Positions 2,474-56,238 of a DNA stretch of 64,000 nucleotides are shown piece after piece. Within the stretch, counting starts at the first letter, position 1; every line of letters starts with the position of its first letter. The notes under the pieces were generated by a model that made no database searches, was not told the origin of the DNA, and saw nothing but the letters and a program-made list of their open reading frames with translations. Source of the DNA: a virus (taxonomy: Duplodnaviria; Caudoviricetes); the IMG/VR virus record IMGVR_UViG_3300025707_000003, positions 64,001 to 128,000 of that record; one strand, given 5' to 3'. A program made the position numbers and the translations under genes.

Positions 2474-2740
2474 ATGTCATTACCTAGAGAACGAAAAAGA
2501 GCAGATTATCGAGTGATCGCTCGTATCTTGCAACTGAGTCATGGACAGGGAAACCCAAAAGACTCTTTGCTTGAAAATACTTCTATTGTATTTACTCTAA
2601 AGGGGGGGTCATGGGTATTATTCTTTGAAGGACACCCAAAACACAGCAAACTACTTAAAATAGTGATAAAAGCTGTCGTAAAACATAAGAAGGATCAACA
2701 TGAGCGAAGAAATAGATGCAAAACCAGTCGGGAAGATTAA
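2474..2740 (+). CDS. Hypothetical protein
   Basis: ATG 2474 after aagggag RBS and class I-like motif at 2434. Confidence 0.5.
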   Translation: MSLPRERKRADYRVIARILQLSHGQGNPKDSLLENTSIVFTLKGGSWVLFFEGHPKHSKLLKIVIKAVVKHKKDQHERRNRCKTSRED

Positions 2741-4376
2741 ACCTCGATCTAAAGCAACCACTCGTAAGCTCAGTCCTGCTGAGATGAAATCGAGGGTGAA
2801 GATAGCGATGACTACAGGTGGCTCTATGATGGGGTCGGGTGGAAACTTCTATTCTCCAGAGCTATCGACAGACTTTCTTGAGCTACCTCAAAGTCAAGAC
2901 GAACAACGCAACTACTTTAGGTTCTTCTATCGCACTGACCCATTCGTTGGTCAGGCGATTGACCTACATACAGAGCTACCCCTCTCTAAGATCAGATTAG
3001 GATTACCTAAAGCTCGCAATAGAGATATGGCGTATGAAGCTCTAAGGTTTTGTGAAAAGTGGTCTAAGCGAGTAGGTCTTCTTCATCGGTTAATAGAAAT
3101 CTTACATGAGTTCAATCTACTTGGTGAGGCGTTTGTCTTTTGTGAAGACAATAACCCCGATGTGCCTCAAGAGATCACACATAGTGGTCGAAATGTCCTC
3201 AAAGAAGATGGCGAAGCGTTTACCGAGTGGACTGAGTATGAGGACGCAGATGAACGAGCTTTCAAATGGCTTAAAAGGAATTATAAAGGTTGGACTGGTC
3301 TTAGAATCCTTCCACCAGAGCAAGTTCACATGGAGAGTTTTCCTTTCACTAGTGAGAAGATCATCCAACTTATTCCCGATAGTAAAACTCGTGATGTAGT
3401 TGAACGAGCTTCGGTTAATGACCCCTCTGCTCTTCGTATCGTGGACTCTATGCCAGGTGATGTTGTTGAAGCTATCCGAGATGGTCGCAACATTGATCTC
3501 AACACCGATCCCGATCAAGGTTCATTCGTTTACTATATGGCTCGTAAGAAATCACAATATGAGCCTCGTGGACACTCTATGCTTGAGCGTTGTCTTCGTG
3601 TCCTCGTTTATCGAGATAAGTTAAGACAGGCACAAACCTCAATCGCTTCAAGACACATGACTCCTATCCGTCTTGTTTATGCAGAGGATATGGATGCGTC
3701 TGATGTCGAAGAGTTGAGAGATCAAGTGGATCTTGCATTACAAGACCCAGACTACTCGATCATCGCTAACTTTCAAGTATCTTGGGAAGAAATGGGTGCA
3801 GACTCTCGCTTATTAGAACTATCGGGTGAATATGACATGACCGACCGACAAATGTATGCTGGTCTAGGTGTTACTGAATCTCTGTTGTCGGGTGAGTCTA
3901 GTTATAGTGGCGACAGGATCAACCTAGAAGTCATCAACACACGCTATATGCTTATGCGTGAGGTTCTTCAAGAGATGGTTGAGGAGAACATCTTGAAGCC
4001 AATGTGTAGACGAATGGGTTTCGTTGAAGAAGATGAAGATGGGGATGAAATTGTCGTACACCCAACTCTTAGCTTCACTAGACTTGGATTGCGAGATAAC
4101 CAAGATACCTTTGATGCTCTCTTTAATCTGTATCAGAAGGGTTCATTGGACATTGATGTCATCTTAGAACTTCTTAATGTCGATCCTATGACCACTAAAG
4201 CTAAACTTGAGCGTGATATGTGGACACTCAACGATAGTCAGTTTAATGAGGTTCTTAGAGGGGTCTATGGTGAAGCTGGTCGTATGTTAGCCGAGAATAC
4301 CGAAGCGATTGAACTCATCGCTAAGAATCTTGGCTTAAAGTACAACCCACCAGAAGAAGAAGGTGGTCGTTTCTAA
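2700..4376 (+). CDS. Portal protein (probable)
   Basis: 558 aa; RFFYRTDPFVGQAIDLHTELPLSK N-terminal block resembles large-phage portals; head genes in same window. Confidence 0.7.
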   Translation: MSEEIDAKPVGKIKPRSKATTRKLSPAEMKSRVKIAMTTGGSMMGSGGNFYSPELSTDFLELPQSQDEQRNYFRFFYRTDPFVGQAIDLHTELPLSKIRLGLPKARNRDMAYEALRFCEKWSKRVGLLHRLIEILHEFNLLGEAFVFCEDNNPDVPQEITHSGRNVLKEDGEAFTEWTEYEDADERAFKWLKRNYKGWTGLRILPPEQVHMESFPFTSEKIIQLIPDSKTRDVVERASVNDPSALRIVDSMPGDVVEAIRDGRNIDLNTDPDQGSFVYYMARKKSQYEPRGHSMLERCLRVLVYRDKLRQAQTSIASRHMTPIRLVYAEDMDASDVEELRDQVDLALQDPDYSIIANFQVSWEEMGADSRLLELSGEYDMTDRQMYAGLGVTESLLSGESSYSGDRINLEVINTRYMLMREVLQEMVEENILKPMCRRMGFVEEDEDGDEIVVHPTLSFTRLGLRDNQDTFDALFNLYQKGSLDIDVILELLNVDPMTTKAKLERDMWTLNDSQFNEVLRGVYGEAGRMLAENTEAIELIAKNLGLKYNPPEEEGGRF

Positions 4377-5522: not shown

Positions 5523-5575
5523 CTCATTCTCCTTTTACTTCGTACTTCTTTAATCAGTTATATATTTTAGGTGAC

Positions 5576-5610
5576 AAAACACCCCGACTCTCCTAAGAGA
5601 AGCCGAAGTG
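5576..5610 (-). terminator. Rho-independent terminator-like hairpin
   Basis: cacttcggcttctc-ttag-gagagtcggggtg followed by TTTT on minus strand. Confidence 0.6.
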
Positions 5611-5815
5611 TCGGGCAAGTGAGCTGACCTCGCCAAGCATATCTGAGTCTGCGTAAAGCCCAATCGCGAGAAGAATCTCACATCCTGGCTCAACCCCCCC
5701 TTTTGGGATTGAACCTACGACATGAGGTCAGAATCACTCATATCGACCACTACCCAATCTAGGGAGGTTTACCTTTACAACAGCATAAAGGCTTTGTCGT
5801 GGGTTAGTGGTATCA
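5576..5815 (-). ncRNA. Candidate structured ncRNA with degenerate tRNA-like 5' domain (5693-5767)
   Basis: No ORF over 15 aa; class II motif upstream and terminator downstream; acceptor CCTCCCT/AGGGGGG, D-stem ATTG/CGAT, T-loop GGTTCAATCC; 10-nt anticodon loop, weak T-stem, no CCA. Confidence 0.4.
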
Positions 5816-5832
5816 CCCAACTGTATTATACA

Positions 5833-5848
5833 ATAAATAAGGGGTTAC
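5833..5848 (-). promoter_or_regulatory. Class II motif GTAACCCCTTATTTAT
   Basis: Followed by TG-TATAAT; upstream of ncRNA candidate. Confidence 0.65.
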
Positions 5849-5853
5849 AGTTA

Positions 5854-5865
5854 TAGTTTATTTAT
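5854..5865 (+). promoter_or_regulatory. Class I motif
   Basis: Exact consensus upstream of 5896. Confidence 0.7.
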
Positions 5866-5895
5866 CATCACACAAGGTAAAGTAAAGGGGTCATC

Positions 5896-43515: not shown

Positions 43516-44303
43516 TCCTCAACCGTCAGTTGTTGCACTAAGTTTGGTAGGTAGTCCTCTGCCCTCTCAGTGGTGTAGTTAAAGCTCTTGGACTCTTGGG
43601 ACGGATTAGGGTCGATGATATACATCGGTTTCCTCATCTGCCTACCTGCTTGAACCACCATATTAGTGATCCCTACAGAGAAGCTAGTGCCGATAAAGAC
43701 CACCATATCTGCTTCCTCTATAGCTTCCATAGCGTCATCTAAGCGATAGTCCTCATGAGAACCATAAAACTCATCGAACCACAGTGCGTGTGCTCTTAAA
43801 GGGATCTCGCATTTAGGACAACAAGGTAAGTCATTCGGGTCTTTGGTCTGCCCAAACTTTTGATAGTCCTCCCAAACCTCGCTCATCGGGATTGAACCTC
43901 TCGGTGAACCATGATCACACCCATGATTGGGACAACGCACTGCGTTGGTTGTGCCATGTATCTCGATGACATTTTGTGAACCCGCCTTGTTATGAAGGTG
44001 ATCCACATTCTGTGTGATGATGTCAAAGGTCTTGCCCTCAGACTCACACCACTCCCCAATCTCCGCTAGGGCTTTATGAGCGTCATTCGGTTCAAGTTCA
44101 AAGACACCTTTGAACTTTTCTAAATACCATTCCCATGCCTTCGCTGGGTTCTTATTGAAGTAGCGTTGTGTGCCTTTCTCAAGGACATCATTAGCCCACA
44201 CAGCATCCTCTCCTGTTCTCCATGCTTGGATTCCCGATGCTGTGCTGATCCCTGCACCTGTGACAACAAGGATGTTGTCCGCTGATTTGATTGCGTTTAG
44301 CAT
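43512..44303 (-). CDS. Sirtuin (SIR2-family NAD-dependent deacylase)
   Basis: TGAGISTASGI, ITQNVDHLH, EIHG, two CxxC-like Zn sites, IGTS. Confidence 0.9.
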   Translation of the reverse strand: MLNAIKSADNILVVTGAGISTASGIQAWRTGEDAVWANDVLEKGTQRYFNKNPAKAWEWYLEKFKGVFELEPNDAHKALAEIGEWCESEGKTFDIITQNVDHLHNKAGSQNVIEIHGTTNAVRCPNHGCDHGSPRGSIPMSEVWEDYQKFGQTKDPNDLPCCPKCEIPLRAHALWFDEFYGSHEDYRLDDAMEAIEEADMVVFIGTSFSVGITNMVVQAGRQMRKPMYIIDPNPSQESKSFNYTTERAEDYLPNLVQQLTVED

Positions 44304-44542
44304 GATAGTGTCATTTCCTTTACTGTGTAGCCCTTCTTGAGCTTTTGTGGTGCTTTTTTCTCGAAGTAAGCCCGATCTTTATTGATAGCTTGCCCCCAGT
44401 CGCCAATGCGACCATAACGGACGACCACATCTCCATTTGGGCGACCTGTGGCTTCCCAAAACTTGTAGTGACCATCCTTATGCTCCAGTCGGATTCTGAA
44501 GGTTGGGGATAGGTTGCATTGTGTTATAGCGTCAATAGCCAT
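44297..44542 (-). CDS. Stand-alone WGR-domain protein
   Basis: HYKFWE...VVVRYGRIG...KLKKGY; start reassigned to ATG 44542 after aaggag. Confidence 0.75.
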   Translation of the reverse strand: MAIDAITQCNLSPTFRIRLEHKDGHYKFWEATGRPNGDVVVRYGRIGDWGQAINKDRAYFEKKAPQKLKKGYTVKEMTLSC

Positions 44543-44552
44543 GTGTTCTCCT

Positions 44553-44876
44553 TTAGTGAGTGATTCGTAGTGTGAGTGCATCGAGCTTTGCGTTCTGCTC
44601 GGCTCGATATGACTCCATGAAAGTAACAAGCAGAGTGGGGTCGCTGAACAGCTTGCGAAGGTGTGACTCTGCGTCCTTCGTGTAGGTGAACTCACCCACA
44701 GGGATTTGTTGTGACCACGCTCCTCGGGCTCCGAGAAAGAGGTTTGCGGTACACCCAAAGATAGTCTGATGGATGACACCAAGCTCGGTGTCAGTGTCAG
44801 ATCCTTTGGCGTAGAAGAACTTACAGCCGTTCTCAAAGTTATCGAAGGTGAGGGTGGTCTTGGTCTTGGTAGCCAT
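44553..44876 (-). CDS. Hypothetical protein
   Basis: First gene behind class II motif 44934-44949. Confidence 0.65.
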   Translation of the reverse strand: MATKTKTTLTFDNFENGCKFFYAKGSDTDTELGVIHQTIFGCTANLFLGARGAWSQQIPVGEFTYTKDAESHLRKLFSDPTLLVTFMESYRAEQNAKLDALTLRITH

Positions 44877-44933
44877 GTCGTTCTCCGTTCGGGGAGTGTT
44901 GGTTGGTGAGGATTGTCCCCCTTACATTATGAT

Positions 44934-44949
44934 ATAAATAAGGGGTTAC
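44934..44949 (-). promoter_or_regulatory. Class II motif
   Basis: GTAACCCCTTATTTAT upstream of the WGR-sirtuin operon. Confidence 0.65.
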
Positions 44950-45001
44950 GATTCTAACTTTCCTTTACTTTGCAGGTGTTTATGGTTTTTGTGCGTGTAG
45001 C

Positions 45002-45017
45002 GTAACCCCTTGTTTAT
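45002..45017 (+). promoter_or_regulatory. Class II motif
   Basis: GTAACCCCTTGTTTAT upstream of CNNM gene; divergent partner of 44934-44949. Confidence 0.65.
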
Positions 45018-45067
45018 ACCCTTACATGAGGATCGAACCTCGCCACCAACTCTTAATGGAGAACCAC

Positions 45068-45997
45068 ATGGTCAGCACACTATCTGCTTTTTTCATCACT
45101 ATCATCGCCTCAGCTATCCACAGTGCGTGGGAAATGGCTGTCGCTTCCTTGTCTAAGGCTGAGGTTAAGTCAGCCTGTAAAAACAAGGTCTTCGGATCTT
45201 GTGCGTTGAGCAAGGTGATGAATGATAAAGAGTCTTTTATTAGCACCAATACCATCTGTAATAACATCGCCAACATCATGGGTAGTGGTGTTGTCGGTAC
45301 GAACGCAGGTATGTGGCTTGGTAGCGAGTATGTTGGTTTGGTGATGGGTATCCTCACTTTCACTATCATCATCTGCTCAGAGATCATCCCTAAAGCGTAT
45401 GGTACGAATAACCCTCTCTTTGTGGGTCGTGTCTTCGCTCCTATGATGGTTTTACTGTCATGGGTACTCACACCTATCAACTGGGTCATAGGAAAGCTCA
45501 CAGCTCGTTTTAAGGGTGCAGAGCCTTCTGCTATCGTAGAGAAGATCTACGAGGGTACTTATAACCTTTCACTCACGACTGTTGAGCAGGTTGGTACTCC
45601 ACGAGTCAACATGACCACTGTCCGAGCAGATGAGCGACTAGAGGACATCAAGCCCTCTCTCTTTGAGAGTCAGCACTCACGACTTGTCGTACTTGGTAAG
45701 AGCCGAGATGATGTAAAGGGTATCATGCTTCTCAAAGACGCTTTCCAAGCTCTTGCTAAGGACGAGAACCCTACTGTCGAAGAGCTTACAAGACCTGTCC
45801 TCAAGGTTGAATCGAACATCTCTTGTGAAGAGATGTTCAAACAGTTCACCACGAACAAGTCTCACCTCGCTGTCATGGTAGATGACTTTGGAGGAACAGA
45901 TGGTGTCGTGAGTCTTGAGGACATCATGGAACTGATGACCCAAACCGAGATCACCGATGAAACAGACGAGCAAGTCTGTATGCGTGAGGTAGGGTAA
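45068..45997 (+). CDS. CNNM/DUF21 plus CBS-pair membrane protein (CorB/TlyC-like)
   Basis: SAWEMA, NNIANI, SEIIPKAYG, TPRVNM, HSRL, VDDFGGTDGVVSLEDIME. Confidence 0.85.
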   Translation: MVSTLSAFFITIIASAIHSAWEMAVASLSKAEVKSACKNKVFGSCALSKVMNDKESFISTNTICNNIANIMGSGVVGTNAGMWLGSEYVGLVMGILTFTIIICSEIIPKAYGTNNPLFVGRVFAPMMVLLSWVLTPINWVIGKLTARFKGAEPSAIVEKIYEGTYNLSLTTVEQVGTPRVNMTTVRADERLEDIKPSLFESQHSRLVVLGKSRDDVKGIMLLKDAFQALAKDENPTVEELTRPVLKVESNISCEEMFKQFTTNKSHLAVMVDDFGGTDGVVSLEDIMELMTQTEITDETDEQVCMREVG

Positions 45998-46091
45998 TCA
46001 TATAATGAAGTTTATAATCACAATTTTCCTGTGGGTGCTAATCACACTCCCTTTAACCCTCTTACTTTACTCAATCTTTTAAGGAGACATT

Positions 46092-53479: not shown

Positions 53480-54502
53480 ATGCTCGCGGAATACATTTGG
53501 ATAGATGGTGGAAACCCAACAGCTAGAGTTAGATCTAAGACCAAGTACATACACGACACGACACCAACCACCGTTGAGAGATTGCCTCTGTGGAACTTTG
53601 ATGGTTCATCTACAATGCAAGCGATCGGCAAATCCTCGGACTGTGTATTAAGACCAGTACGAATTGTCAATGACCCCATTAGAGGAGGGGACAATATCTT
53701 AGTTCTTTGTGAGGTAGAGACTGTTGATGGCGATAAGCACCCCTCTAATACAAGGTCTAAACTTGTTAAATCTCTTGAGTCTTTTAAAGGTCAAGGAGAA
53801 TGGGTTGCTTTTGAACAAGAGTATACTCTGTATAAAGGATCAAGACCTCTAGGATTCCCAAGTGAAAGAAGATTCCCAGCAGACCAAGGCCCATATTATT
53901 GTGGTGTTGGTGCAGATGAAGTATCTGGTAGACCTCTTGTAGAAAAGCACTTAGATATTTGTCTGCAAGCAGGATTGCCTATTACGGGTATTAATGCAGA
54001 AGTCATGCCTGGTCAATGGGAATACCAACTTGGCGGGCCGAACATAGACGCTTTAACAGCGAGTGATCATCTATGGATTTCTAGGTGGCTCTTGTATCGC
54101 ATTGGTGAGGACTTTGACATCACAGCAACTCTTGACCCTAAGCCTGTCGCTGGAGATTGGAATGGGGCGGGTATGCACACCAACTTCTCAACCAAAACCA
54201 TGAGACAAGAAGGTGGCATCGAGGAGATCAACCAAGCTGTTGAAAAGATGTCTCACAGGATTCAAGAACACCTTGATCGCTATGGGGCAGGTTATGAGAT
54301 CAGACTAACAGGTCACCACGAGACTTGTCGTTATGATGAGTTCAAGTGGGGTGTTTCAGATCGTACAGCTTCTGTTCGTATCCCTGTCGAAACGGATAAA
54401 AATGGTTGTGGCTATTTTGAAGACCGAAGACCTAACGCTAACGCAGATCCTTATCTTGTATGTGAAGCATTGATAAGAACGATCTCTGAAACTTGGGAGT
54501 AA
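53480..54502 (+). CDS. glnII: Glutamine synthetase type II
   Basis: AEYIWIDG, WNFDGSST, QGPYYCGVG, NAEVMPGQWEYQ, DWNGAGMHTNFST, RLTGHHET, YFEDRRP. Confidence 0.92.
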   Translation: MLAEYIWIDGGNPTARVRSKTKYIHDTTPTTVERLPLWNFDGSSTMQAIGKSSDCVLRPVRIVNDPIRGGDNILVLCEVETVDGDKHPSNTRSKLVKSLESFKGQGEWVAFEQEYTLYKGSRPLGFPSERRFPADQGPYYCGVGADEVSGRPLVEKHLDICLQAGLPITGINAEVMPGQWEYQLGGPNIDALTASDHLWISRWLLYRIGEDFDITATLDPKPVAGDWNGAGMHTNFSTKTMRQEGGIEEINQAVEKMSHRIQEHLDRYGAGYEIRLTGHHETCRYDEFKWGVSDRTASVRIPVETDKNGCGYFEDRRPNANADPYLVCEALIRTISETWE

Positions 54503-54505
54503 ACC

Positions 54506-54700
54506 ATGAAAGTTCGTGTGGAATGGGATTTCTCTCAAACAGAGCTAGAAGATACAGAATACGACAAAGCAGTTGAGCAAGCAGGGCTTCCCCATATCGT
54601 CCTTATACCCATAGATGTGGCTTATGAGGATGAAGGTGGGATCTCCGATTGGATCAGTGACAAGTTTGGGTTTACAATCTATGAGTGGTGGGAAGTGTAA
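54506..54700 (+). CDS. Hypothetical protein
   Basis: 64-aa acidic ORF, RBS ggag. Confidence 0.55.
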   Translation: MKVRVEWDFSQTELEDTEYDKAVEQAGLPHIVLIPIDVAYEDEGGISDWISDKFGFTIYEWWEV

Positions 54701-54712
54701 CCCCTTATTTAT
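54697..54712 (+). promoter_or_regulatory. Class II motif
   Basis: GTAACCCCTTATTTAT upstream of HD hydrolase. Confidence 0.65.
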
Positions 54713-54770
54713 GTCATAGTGTAAGGGGCTGAAAACCAACCCCTCAAACTCCCCAAAGGAGAACGCCAAG

Positions 54771-55313
54771 ATGAACCACCTAACCCTCCTCAACACAGTG
54801 AGCTACGCAACCGAAGCTCACAAAAATCAGCAACGCAAGAGTGGCGGAGCCTACATCTGCCACCCAATCAGAATGTCGGCCGCACTTGCAAGTGCAGGGG
54901 TCAACGACCTACTTCCGCTCCAAATCGCCCTCCTCCACGACACCATCGAGGACACTACGGTGACCTACAACGACCTCCTCACAGAGTTTGGACAGGAGGT
55001 CGCAGACGGAGTGGTCGAACTGAGTGATGACAAAGCACTCGACAAAGCCACACGCAAGGCTCTCACCATCACCCACGCCCCACACCTCAGCCGAGCATCC
55101 GCTCTAGTGAAGATCGCAGACAACTGCGACAACTGTAACGGGATCATGGGCGACCACCCTCCCAAAGGGTGGAATCAAGAGAGGATCACAGCCTACGGAG
55201 AGTGGGCAAGGAAGGTAGCAGAGGGAGCTTACAAAGCTCTTAAGAGCGAGGGGGACAGAGAGATCGCCCGAAACCTCGCACGAGGAAGCAAACTCCCAAC
55301 CAACCTCGGCTAA
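54771..55313 (+). CDS. Mesh1/SAH-like HD-domain (p)ppGpp hydrolase
   Basis: AH..Q.RKSG..YICHP, ALLHDTIEDT, VKIADNCDN; behind class II motif. Confidence 0.85.
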   Translation: MNHLTLLNTVSYATEAHKNQQRKSGGAYICHPIRMSAALASAGVNDLLPLQIALLHDTIEDTTVTYNDLLTEFGQEVADGVVELSDDKALDKATRKALTITHAPHLSRASALVKIADNCDNCNGIMGDHPPKGWNQERITAYGEWARKVAEGAYKALKSEGDREIARNLARGSKLPTNLG

Positions 55314-55942
55314 AGAGGAGGGGAGAGAAGGTCAAAGCGATAAAACGCAGACTTGACCCCCACCTCTAAGACCCCACCACTACGCACCAACAACTGAGAG
55401 AAGTTGTTGGGATCATTTACTACATCATAAGTAGCCAACCCACAGATGTAGAATTCGTACCTTGACTCTCTTATCACGATAATCTGAGGTGTGTTTGAGG
55501 AGCTAGGTGTAGGCTTTCTTAACAGTGGGAAATCTCCCATGTTTACTGTCTTGACTCCCACCTCATATCCCGCTGACCTCAAGTCGGGAACATAGTAGTC
55601 ATTAGAGTTCCCTACAGAAAAGTCAACGAACAACTTACCTATGTGTTGTTCCACAGCACACTCACCACCCCAACCAGTCAGGTATCTTTTAGCCAACGAC
55701 TTTGGGTCTTTAAAGTATTGACCCCCCTCTTGTCTTTTCTTCTCGATCACTTTCTTAACGAACGACCTTATTTGAGCCTCTTTATCGGTGCTTAGAGAGA
55801 CTTTTGGGTATGAGTCTAGGTGTTGCCCTACAAAGTGATTGAAGGACGGTTCTATACCCTCTAAGATCTTTGACCTCAATCTTCTTTCACCTTGCAGTTG
55901 AGCAGGTATTCTCGCACATAATGTTGAATAGCCCTCACCCAA
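55310..55942 (-). CDS. Hypothetical protein (possible PD-(D/E)xK-like fold; start uncertain)
   Basis: GWGGECAV, VPDL, VGVKT pattern. Confidence 0.55.
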   Translation of the reverse strand: MGEGYSTLCARIPAQLQGERRLRSKILEGIEPSFNHFVGQHLDSYPKVSLSTDKEAQIRSFVKKVIEKKRQEGGQYFKDPKSLAKRYLTGWGGECAVEQHIGKLFVDFSVGNSNDYYVPDLRSAGYEVGVKTVNMGDFPLLRKPTPSSSNTPQIIVIRESRYEFYICGLATYDVVNDPNNFSQLLVRSGGVLEVGVKSAFYRFDLLSPPL

Positions 55943-56238
55943 GACTTAGGTGTCTCTATCTTGTAGTTTGCCCTCATGTATTCATCAACACCTTTAGCTG
56001 TCGTAGGCAAACTAAGATCAATAAAACTTGAGTTCATGTGAGGCATCTCTAAAACAAATCGCCTCAAGTTTTGATATTCAAGCCTCAGCATATCCAAACG
56101 GTATTCCTCACTTGAAGCACAGGAAAAGTGTGTCGGACACTTTATCATCCCTCCTTTTTTGAGAAAAATGTATCCGTCACCTTTACATTTACAGTCTAAC
56201 ATACTGTTCGTGATTTTCATTACTGTCTTTCGTTTCAC
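55876..56238 (-). CDS. Hypothetical protein with Cys cluster
   Basis: GTG start after aggagg; CKCKGDG...KCPTH. Confidence 0.55.
   Translation of the reverse strand: MKRKTVMKITNSMLDCKCKGDGYIFLKKGGMIKCPTHFSCASSEEYRLDMLRLEYQNLRRFVLEMPHMNSSFIDLSLPTTAKGVDEYMRANYKIETPKSWVRAIQHYVREYLLNCKVKED

Follow-up and report, generated by a model that had tools for sequence, protein, structure and literature searches.

A candidate ~250-nt structured non-coding RNA gene of closely related, uncultured marine jumbo phages

The species 1 and 2 RNAs of phage T4 are stable non-tRNA RNAs encoded in the tRNA region of the phage, and the packaging RNA (pRNA) of phi29 is a phage non-coding RNA with mutually complementary loops. 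Phages also counter tRNA-cleaving defences with tRNAs of their own, as known from PARIS and T5. PMC11455837 summarises this tRNA-based counter. Some jumbo phages encode a Ro/TROVE protein (PMC7824862). The RNA described here is like T4 species 1 and 2 and like tRNA-derived non-coding RNAs in being phage-encoded, stable-looking and structured, with partial tRNA features, but differs by its location outside the tRNA island, by a predicted promoter and terminator of its own, and by its larger size. Like the bacterial YrlA Y RNAs (partners of Ro60/Rsr), it joins a tRNA-like module with other helices; unlike them, it has no Rfam match and its ends do not form the Ro-binding stem. A Y RNA working with a phage Ro60 was rejected, since TROVE (PF05731) is absent from three related phage records (G005, G006 and G002, two of them at least 95% complete). 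With phi29 pRNA it shares two mutually complementary loops and a gene position close to the portal gene (1.2 kb away in the window). Yet no Rfam family matches, the complementary loops are invariant and without covariation, their complementarity fits pairing inside one molecule equally well as between molecules, and a jumbo phage would be expected to package its DNA with a terminase. A literature search returned no description of this RNA.

The gene lies in a window of 64,000 nucleotides (positions 64,001 to 128,000 of the IMG/VR record IMGVR_UViG_3300025707_000003; coordinates below are those of the window), a jumbo-phage fragment that encodes a portal protein (2700-4376), a head protease, GroEL and PhoH. 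A gap of 373 bp (5523-5895) separates two diverging genes. The first-pass annotation had seen here an ORF-free transcription unit framed by a class II motif with TATAAT and a terminator; the gap indeed holds no ORF conserved among homologues, and both motifs are present when it is read on the minus strand. The features of the locus are the following:

5896, plus strand: start of an ORF of 784 aa
5833-5848, minus strand: phage promoter motif GTAACCCCTTATTTAT (class II), kept in six of seven homologues
5825-5830, minus strand: TATAAT, a -10-like hexamer, invariant in six of seven homologues
5576-5824, minus strand: body of the putative non-coding RNA gene, about 250 nt (based on model R1, the lack of a conserved ORF and the z-score of the fold)
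5576-5613, minus strand: 3' terminal hairpin of 15 bp (hairpin at 5580-5613), then UGUUUU; 95% of alignment cells paired
5522-5289, minus strand: ORF of 77 aa that follows the RNA gene
5292-4783, minus strand: gene whose 169-aa product carries a zinc ribbon of the primase CHC2 type, overlapping the 77-aa ORF

The motif GTAACCCCTTATTTAT occurs seven times in the window (0.12 expected), and all its other copies sit before protein genes with short leaders. Judged from the positions of these signals in the sequence, the transcript would start within about 5817-5832. At the other end, the 3' hairpin and the weak U run behind it likely constitute an intrinsic terminator; in L032, the terminal hairpin differs in sequence, yet a hairpin of 12 bp still forms. 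Of the terminator claimed in the first pass, the long hairpin at 5580-5613 is confirmed; its U run counts only 3-4 U, and a terminator scan of the window made no call there because this run is short. A second promoter-like motif, ATAGTTTRTTTAT, is found in 19 copies in the window (0.33 expected), mostly ahead of plus-strand structural genes. One of these copies, at 5853-5865 (plus strand), belongs to the 784-aa gene and lies outside the RNA; the two promoters stand back to back, and the RNA is therefore not antisense to that gene, a possibility that we discarded.

The RNA body has a G+C content of 50%, compared to ~41% for the genome. Two other G+C-rich islands are found at 44001-46000 (0.475) and 54001-56000 (0.483, versus ~0.41), both coinciding with copies of the class II motif, and a gene at 54771-55313 resembles, by eye, an HD-domain protein of the (p)ppGpp-hydrolase type. 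The 77-aa ORF appears to begin with a hydrophobic stretch that resembles a membrane helix (again by eye); it is 99% identical in L034 and 42-46% identical in five of six relatives, versus 90-98% for the overlapping zinc-ribbon gene. Searches of a phage database with the DNA or the 784-aa protein as query gave zero matches.

Besides the copy in the window, six homologues occupy the same site in marine jumbo-phage contigs (L007, L008, L031, L032, L033 and L034), and model R1 scores 177-318 bits over the seven; L030 has the same score as L008 (313.5 bits), and the two were counted as one sequence. The IMG/VR jumbo-phage contigs L007 and L008 were located through neighbouring proteins and nhmmer, and L031 to L034 (as well as L030) were added by a pattern scan of metagenomes. 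As this pattern fixed three tRNA-like blocks (GGTAGTGG, GATTCTGAC and GGTTCAATC), the invariance of these blocks in the four added sequences results from the selection itself. All seven are close relatives, with 169-aa proteins at least 90% identical, and because the relatives are few and close, the compensatory changes reported below trace back to a small number of events, most of them in L032 and in the pair formed by the window and L034. The gene order is the same in all seven: the 784-aa gene, the RNA on the opposite strand, zero to two extra ORFs, the 77-aa gene and the 169-aa gene. In four relatives, additional DNA separates the RNA from the 77-aa gene, at L008:2062-2770 (with small ORFs of 72 and 122 aa), L031:752-1318, L032:5426-5879 and L033:937-1205, and the RNA site behaves like an insertion hotspot for promoter-bounded cassettes.

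The distribution of the RNA is narrow. The 169-aa protein belongs to a cluster (P0001) of 115 members. More distant relatives, in which this protein is 52-62% identical, gave no match to model R1 and have no space for the RNA at the site; they include a 95%-complete genome of 296 kb. Two patterns searched in 185,000 bacterial genomes returned zero matches. Among viral contigs, the pattern TGATTCTGAC..GGTTCAATC gave 15 chance matches in coding sequence plus two known relatives, and two further patterns recovered solely those two known contigs.

Where present, the RNA is well conserved. When genomes are compared in pairs, identity at four-fold degenerate sites of the 169-aa gene is 56-73% (88% for the closest pair, window and L034), while the 5' half of the RNA reaches 81-94%; for its 3' domain the values are 93-100% among six sequences and 78-81% against L032. 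A hypervariable segment inside the RNA carries indels of 13 and 26 nt. Conservation of the RNA thus exceeds that of the neighbouring gene's four-fold degenerate sites, which indicates that the RNA is under purifying selection. A small protein as the product was ruled out, as the frames of the short ORFs in the region shift between homologues and none of them is conserved. The RNA antitoxin of a type III toxin-antitoxin system was likewise dismissed: no tandem repeats were found in the RNA region, and downstream lie the small ORF with the hydrophobic N-terminus and the primase-type zinc ribbon.

The 255-nt RNA of the window folds at -96.5 kcal/mol (z = -4.1). We tested its structure on a seven-sequence alignment (A5), with shifted pairings as controls. 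In the model of local hairpins, 96.9% of the cells are paired and both partners have changed in six pairs, versus 35-45% and zero to two such pairs in the shifted controls, and compensatory changes preserve the pairing in six hairpins. The predicted elements are listed here from the 5' end, followed by the cloverleaf drawn in the first pass:

5796-5821, minus strand: P1, 5' hairpin GUUGGG / CCCGAC with a loop of ~12 nt containing CCACUA; G:C to A:U in L032 (columns 12:25)
5771-5792, minus strand: P2, GCCUUUAU (GCUGUU) GUAAAGGU; pairing in 100% of cells, two homologues having C:G in place of U:A, with a U:G intermediate
5745-5768, minus strand: P3 region, ACCNCCC, a hypervariable 7-nt loop and GGGUAGUGGUC, which had been read as the D loop
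5719-5744, minus strand: P4, the supposed anticodon arm, a hairpin of 8 bp whose 10-nt loop UGAUUCUGAC is invariant; pairing in 94.6% of cells, A:U alternating with G:C at columns 88:107, several wobble transitions
5687-5715, minus strand: P5, GGUUCAAUCCC (AAAA) GGG..UUGAGCC, holding the T-loop-like GGUUCAAUC; 94.3% of cells paired
5666-5681, minus strand: P6, hypervariable stem-loop (gtgaga-ttct-tctcgc in the window), a hairpin being predicted in each homologue
5637-5652, minus strand: P7, 3-bp hairpin GCA / UGC with the invariant 10-nt loop GACUCAGAUA
5614-5634, minus strand: P8, GGCGAG (GUCAGCUCA) CUUGCC; 100% of cells paired, G:C to A:U in L032
5695-5767, minus strand: tRNA-like cloverleaf of the first-pass annotation, not supported as a conserved structure

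In P7, two of the three pairs change on both sides in L032 and the loop GACUCAGAUA stays identical. Covariation is weak in P5, where the series C:G, U:G, U:A is seen at columns 123:133 and the base-pair probability ranges from 0.23 to 0.99; the T-loop-like block GGUUCAA can pair here with UUGAGCC. The consensus fold pairs ACCACCC of the P3 region with GGGUAGU, and the P3 7-mer, which would be the 5' strand of a D stem, varies freely without compensation. P6 is longer by 13 nt in L007 and carries a further insertion of 26 nt in L034. The two additional hairpins noted in the first pass are both recovered, the gtgaga/tctcgc one as the hypervariable P6 and the ggcgag/cttgcc one as the conserved P8 with its one compensatory change. 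Because it contains many G-U pairs, the fold is specific to the minus strand. An inverted repeat of 11 nt (10 of 11 complementary) also links 5712-5722 with 5795-5805, that is, the segment before the T-like block with the 3' flank of P1; it is not clearly kept in the homologues.

Several loops are complementary to other parts of the molecule. The P4 loop UGAUUCUGAC can pair with the P8 loop GUCAGCUCA over 5 + 3 bp, which are invariant apart from a single mismatch in L032, and the 8-nt perfect arm of this complementarity corresponds to inverted repeat I4. When the stems are included, 16 of 18 positions of the P4 and P8 segments are complementary, forming a long helix (X:Y) that thermodynamic folding favours over P4 + P8 in six of seven sequences (probability 0.79-0.98). 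Compensatory changes favour the local P4 and P8 hairpins instead, and a kissing of the two loops would reconcile the thermodynamic preference with these changes. The P1 loop CCACUA is complementary to a downstream UAGUGG (inverted repeat I2), and the block GGGUAGUGG, the "D loop" of the cloverleaf, has two alternative partners, ACCACCC and, within the P1 loop, CCACUAACCC. A seed-type small RNA with enriched targets in the window is not supported: complements of the P7 loop GACUCAGAUA occur 8 times versus 6.7 expected, and the search for complements of P2 gave nothing.

Based on these observations, we propose, with a probability of roughly 60%, that the locus is a stand-alone gene for a structured, trans-acting non-coding RNA of about 250 nt that belongs to a new family, as no Rfam family matches, and is known to date only from a narrow group of uncultured jumbo phages of marine origin. 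Among the possibilities raised in the first-pass annotation, that of a novel non-coding RNA is the one that conservation, covariation, strand-specific G-U pairs and the absence of a conserved ORF support. The RNA would be transcribed from one of the promoters that the phage uses for non-structural genes and end at the strong 3' hairpin. It would fold into about eight hairpins, P1 to P8, plus the terminal one, with the loops UGAUUCUGAC of P4 and GUCAGCUCA of P8 kissing or merging into the long helix, and the P1 loop pairing with the block GGGUAGUGG. We infer that it acts in trans by its folded shape, most likely as a protein-binding partner or decoy, and that invariant loops such as GACUCAGAUA may be contact surfaces.

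A working tRNA mimic or decoy, in which a tRNA-like elbow made of the GG of GGGUAGUGG and of the T-loop-like UUCAAUC would engage a tRNA-binding factor (candidates being RNase P, the CCA-adding enzyme, an anticodon nuclease or some other defence directed at tRNAs), seems rather unlikely to us. The D-loop-like and T-loop-like blocks are invariant, also in those three sequences whose discovery did not rest on fixing them, a cloverleaf can be drawn for the window sequence, a colinear similarity to a phage tRNA-Tyr exists, and such a role would fit the known use of tRNAs by phages against tRNA-cleaving defences. Yet the stems that would make it a tRNA are not kept. Across homologues, the acceptor stem is paired in 77.6%, the D stem in 57.1% and the T stem in 60% of cells, compared to a shifted background of 35-48%; the acceptor has an A-G mismatch in six of seven sequences, the D stem is missing in four to five of the seven, two of the five T-stem pairs never form, and all three stems have base-pair probabilities of ~0 in all seven sequences. 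The sole cloverleaf stem kept across homologues is the anticodon-like one, and its loop has 10 nt, 8 of them complementary to the P8 loop, rather than a free 7 nt. This loop and GGGUAGUGG are both paired elsewhere in every thermodynamic and consensus model. Moreover, no CCA is encoded, and the most conserved part of the RNA is the 3' extension of the "tRNA", which argues against its removal by processing. A frameshift-type tRNA is unsupported on the same grounds, with stems not kept, pairing probabilities of ~0 and a 10-nt loop that pairs downstream. The covariation among homologues called for in the first pass is seen in six hairpins; the stems specific to the cloverleaf are not kept.

Searches for tRNAs lead to the same picture. 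With default settings, ARAGORN reports no tRNA and no tmRNA in the whole window. At a threshold of 80% (-ps80) it draws the same cloverleaf at 5694-5767, but since it then reports 45 "tRNAs" in the window, mostly within genes, and 13-37 per random 64 kb, the cloverleaf is at chance level. The tmRNA search is negative even at 80%, and with no Rfam match either, the suggested tmRNA-like RNA is not supported. The Rfam scan yielded no family at gathering score and no tRNA match at E<=10; three matches at E<=10 are at chance level and concern unrelated families. The tRNA model itself (RF00005, gathering score 29 bits) recovers nine tRNAs in the related complete genome G005 (375 kb), clustered ~100 kb from the RNA, and leaves the RNA unmatched at E<=10.

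The resemblance to tRNA-Tyr may nevertheless bear on the origin of the core. The RNA and the tRNA-Tyr(GTA) of G005 (L035:2661-2744) share a series of blocks that follow one another alike in both (AGUGGU, (U)CUGACCUCG, CGYAGGUUCAA), a 10-mer (TCTGACCTCG) is identical to positions 39-47 of that tRNA, and a G/C-rich closing helix of 7 bp can be drawn; unlike in a tRNA, ~60 nt upstream and ~120 nt downstream of the core are conserved as well. Among the nine tRNAs of G005, tRNA-Tyr ranks first when compared with the window (z = 4.3) or with L032 (z = 2.5), and in L007 (z = 2.1) it is about level with tRNA-Gly (2.2). A profile of the core searched against the tRNA island with nhmmer places tRNA-Tyr first (E = 0.037, 6.9 bits), and a more distant relative retains the word CTGACCTCG in its tRNA-Tyr as well. 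It is possible, if marginally supported and at about even odds, that the central 75 nt descend from a phage tRNA, the closest being tRNA-Tyr. Such an ancestry does not make the present RNA a tRNA mimic. In the same way, the decaying tRNA of the first-pass annotation may fit the origin of the core, but not the present RNA with its signs of purifying selection.

In the spacer of 580 nt between tRNA-Asn and tRNA-Tyr in G005, which is poor in ORFs, we also noticed a tRNA-shaped segment (L035:2189-2260) with a D-arm-like TAGCTCAACGAACAGAGC, a CTCATC/GATGAG stem and a CTAGG/CCTAG stem, for which ARAGORN makes no call. Another segment, 130 nt upstream of tRNA-Tyr (L035:2484-2531), has a weak likeness to the 3' domain of the RNA (nhmmer E=0.041) and the 11-mer GGGCTTTACGC in common with it, which could be due to chance or to a distant paralogue.

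Going further, one could imagine that a tRNA-Tyr-derived RNA has been repurposed, either as a decoy or sponge for a tRNA-targeting host factor or as a pRNA-like, self-associating oligomer near the portal/head module; we regard this as unlikely.

The stand-alone gene has also to be weighed against a cis-acting leader or attenuator, in which the mutually exclusive folds (P4 + P8 versus X:Y) and the terminator would set the read-through into the 77-aa and 169-aa genes. Such alternative pairings exist, the 77-aa gene lies on the same strand only 54 nt downstream in the window, L034 and L007, and the second promoter copy behind the terminator is decayed in the window and L034. However, the distance between the RNA and the 77-aa gene varies from 54 to 710 nt and amounts to 270-710 nt, in places with extra ORFs, in L008, L031, L032 and L033, and an intact promoter motif follows the 3' hairpin in L007, L008, L031 and L033. 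Because extra ORFs and a second promoter copy precede the next gene in four homologues, we do not consider the RNA a leader. The distant relatives moreover retain both genes without having space for the RNA. This makes the leader distinctly unlikely, and a T-box or riboswitch in particular was rejected, given the variable spacing, the inserted ORFs, the second promoter before the next gene and the lack of any match to a riboswitch or T-box family in Rfam.

Very unlikely, in our view, is a functionless element, be it a decaying tRNA pseudogene or a neutral passenger in a mobile promoter-terminator cassette. The narrow distribution, the absence from the site in more distant relatives, the two flanking promoter copies in four homologues and the marginal likeness to tRNA-Tyr would all suit it, but a passenger would hardly be so much better conserved than four-fold degenerate sites, show compensatory changes in several helices and invariant loops within covarying stems, and restrict its indels to one peripheral hairpin. 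A DNA-level element (for example sites bound by proteins, or a scar of recombination lying between the two back-to-back promoters) is highly improbable, since, for all the inverted repeats and the position between two promoter classes, many G-U pairs of the helices would be C-A mismatches on the opposite strand, and the framing by promoter and terminator indicates an RNA.

It is rare for a phage to encode a structured RNA under a promoter of its own, and most such RNAs have proved to serve specific tasks, for example in packaging, immunity or counter-defence. The RNA that we propose here as a stand-alone trans-acting gene is a clean and compact candidate: in ~250 nt it combines invariant loops with several covarying helices, and the giant marine phages that carry it are as yet uncultivable. 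It may capture a tRNA in the process of being remodelled into something else, and a decoy or oligomer-forming derivative of tRNA-Tyr, if true, would represent a hitherto undescribed kind of phage RNA.
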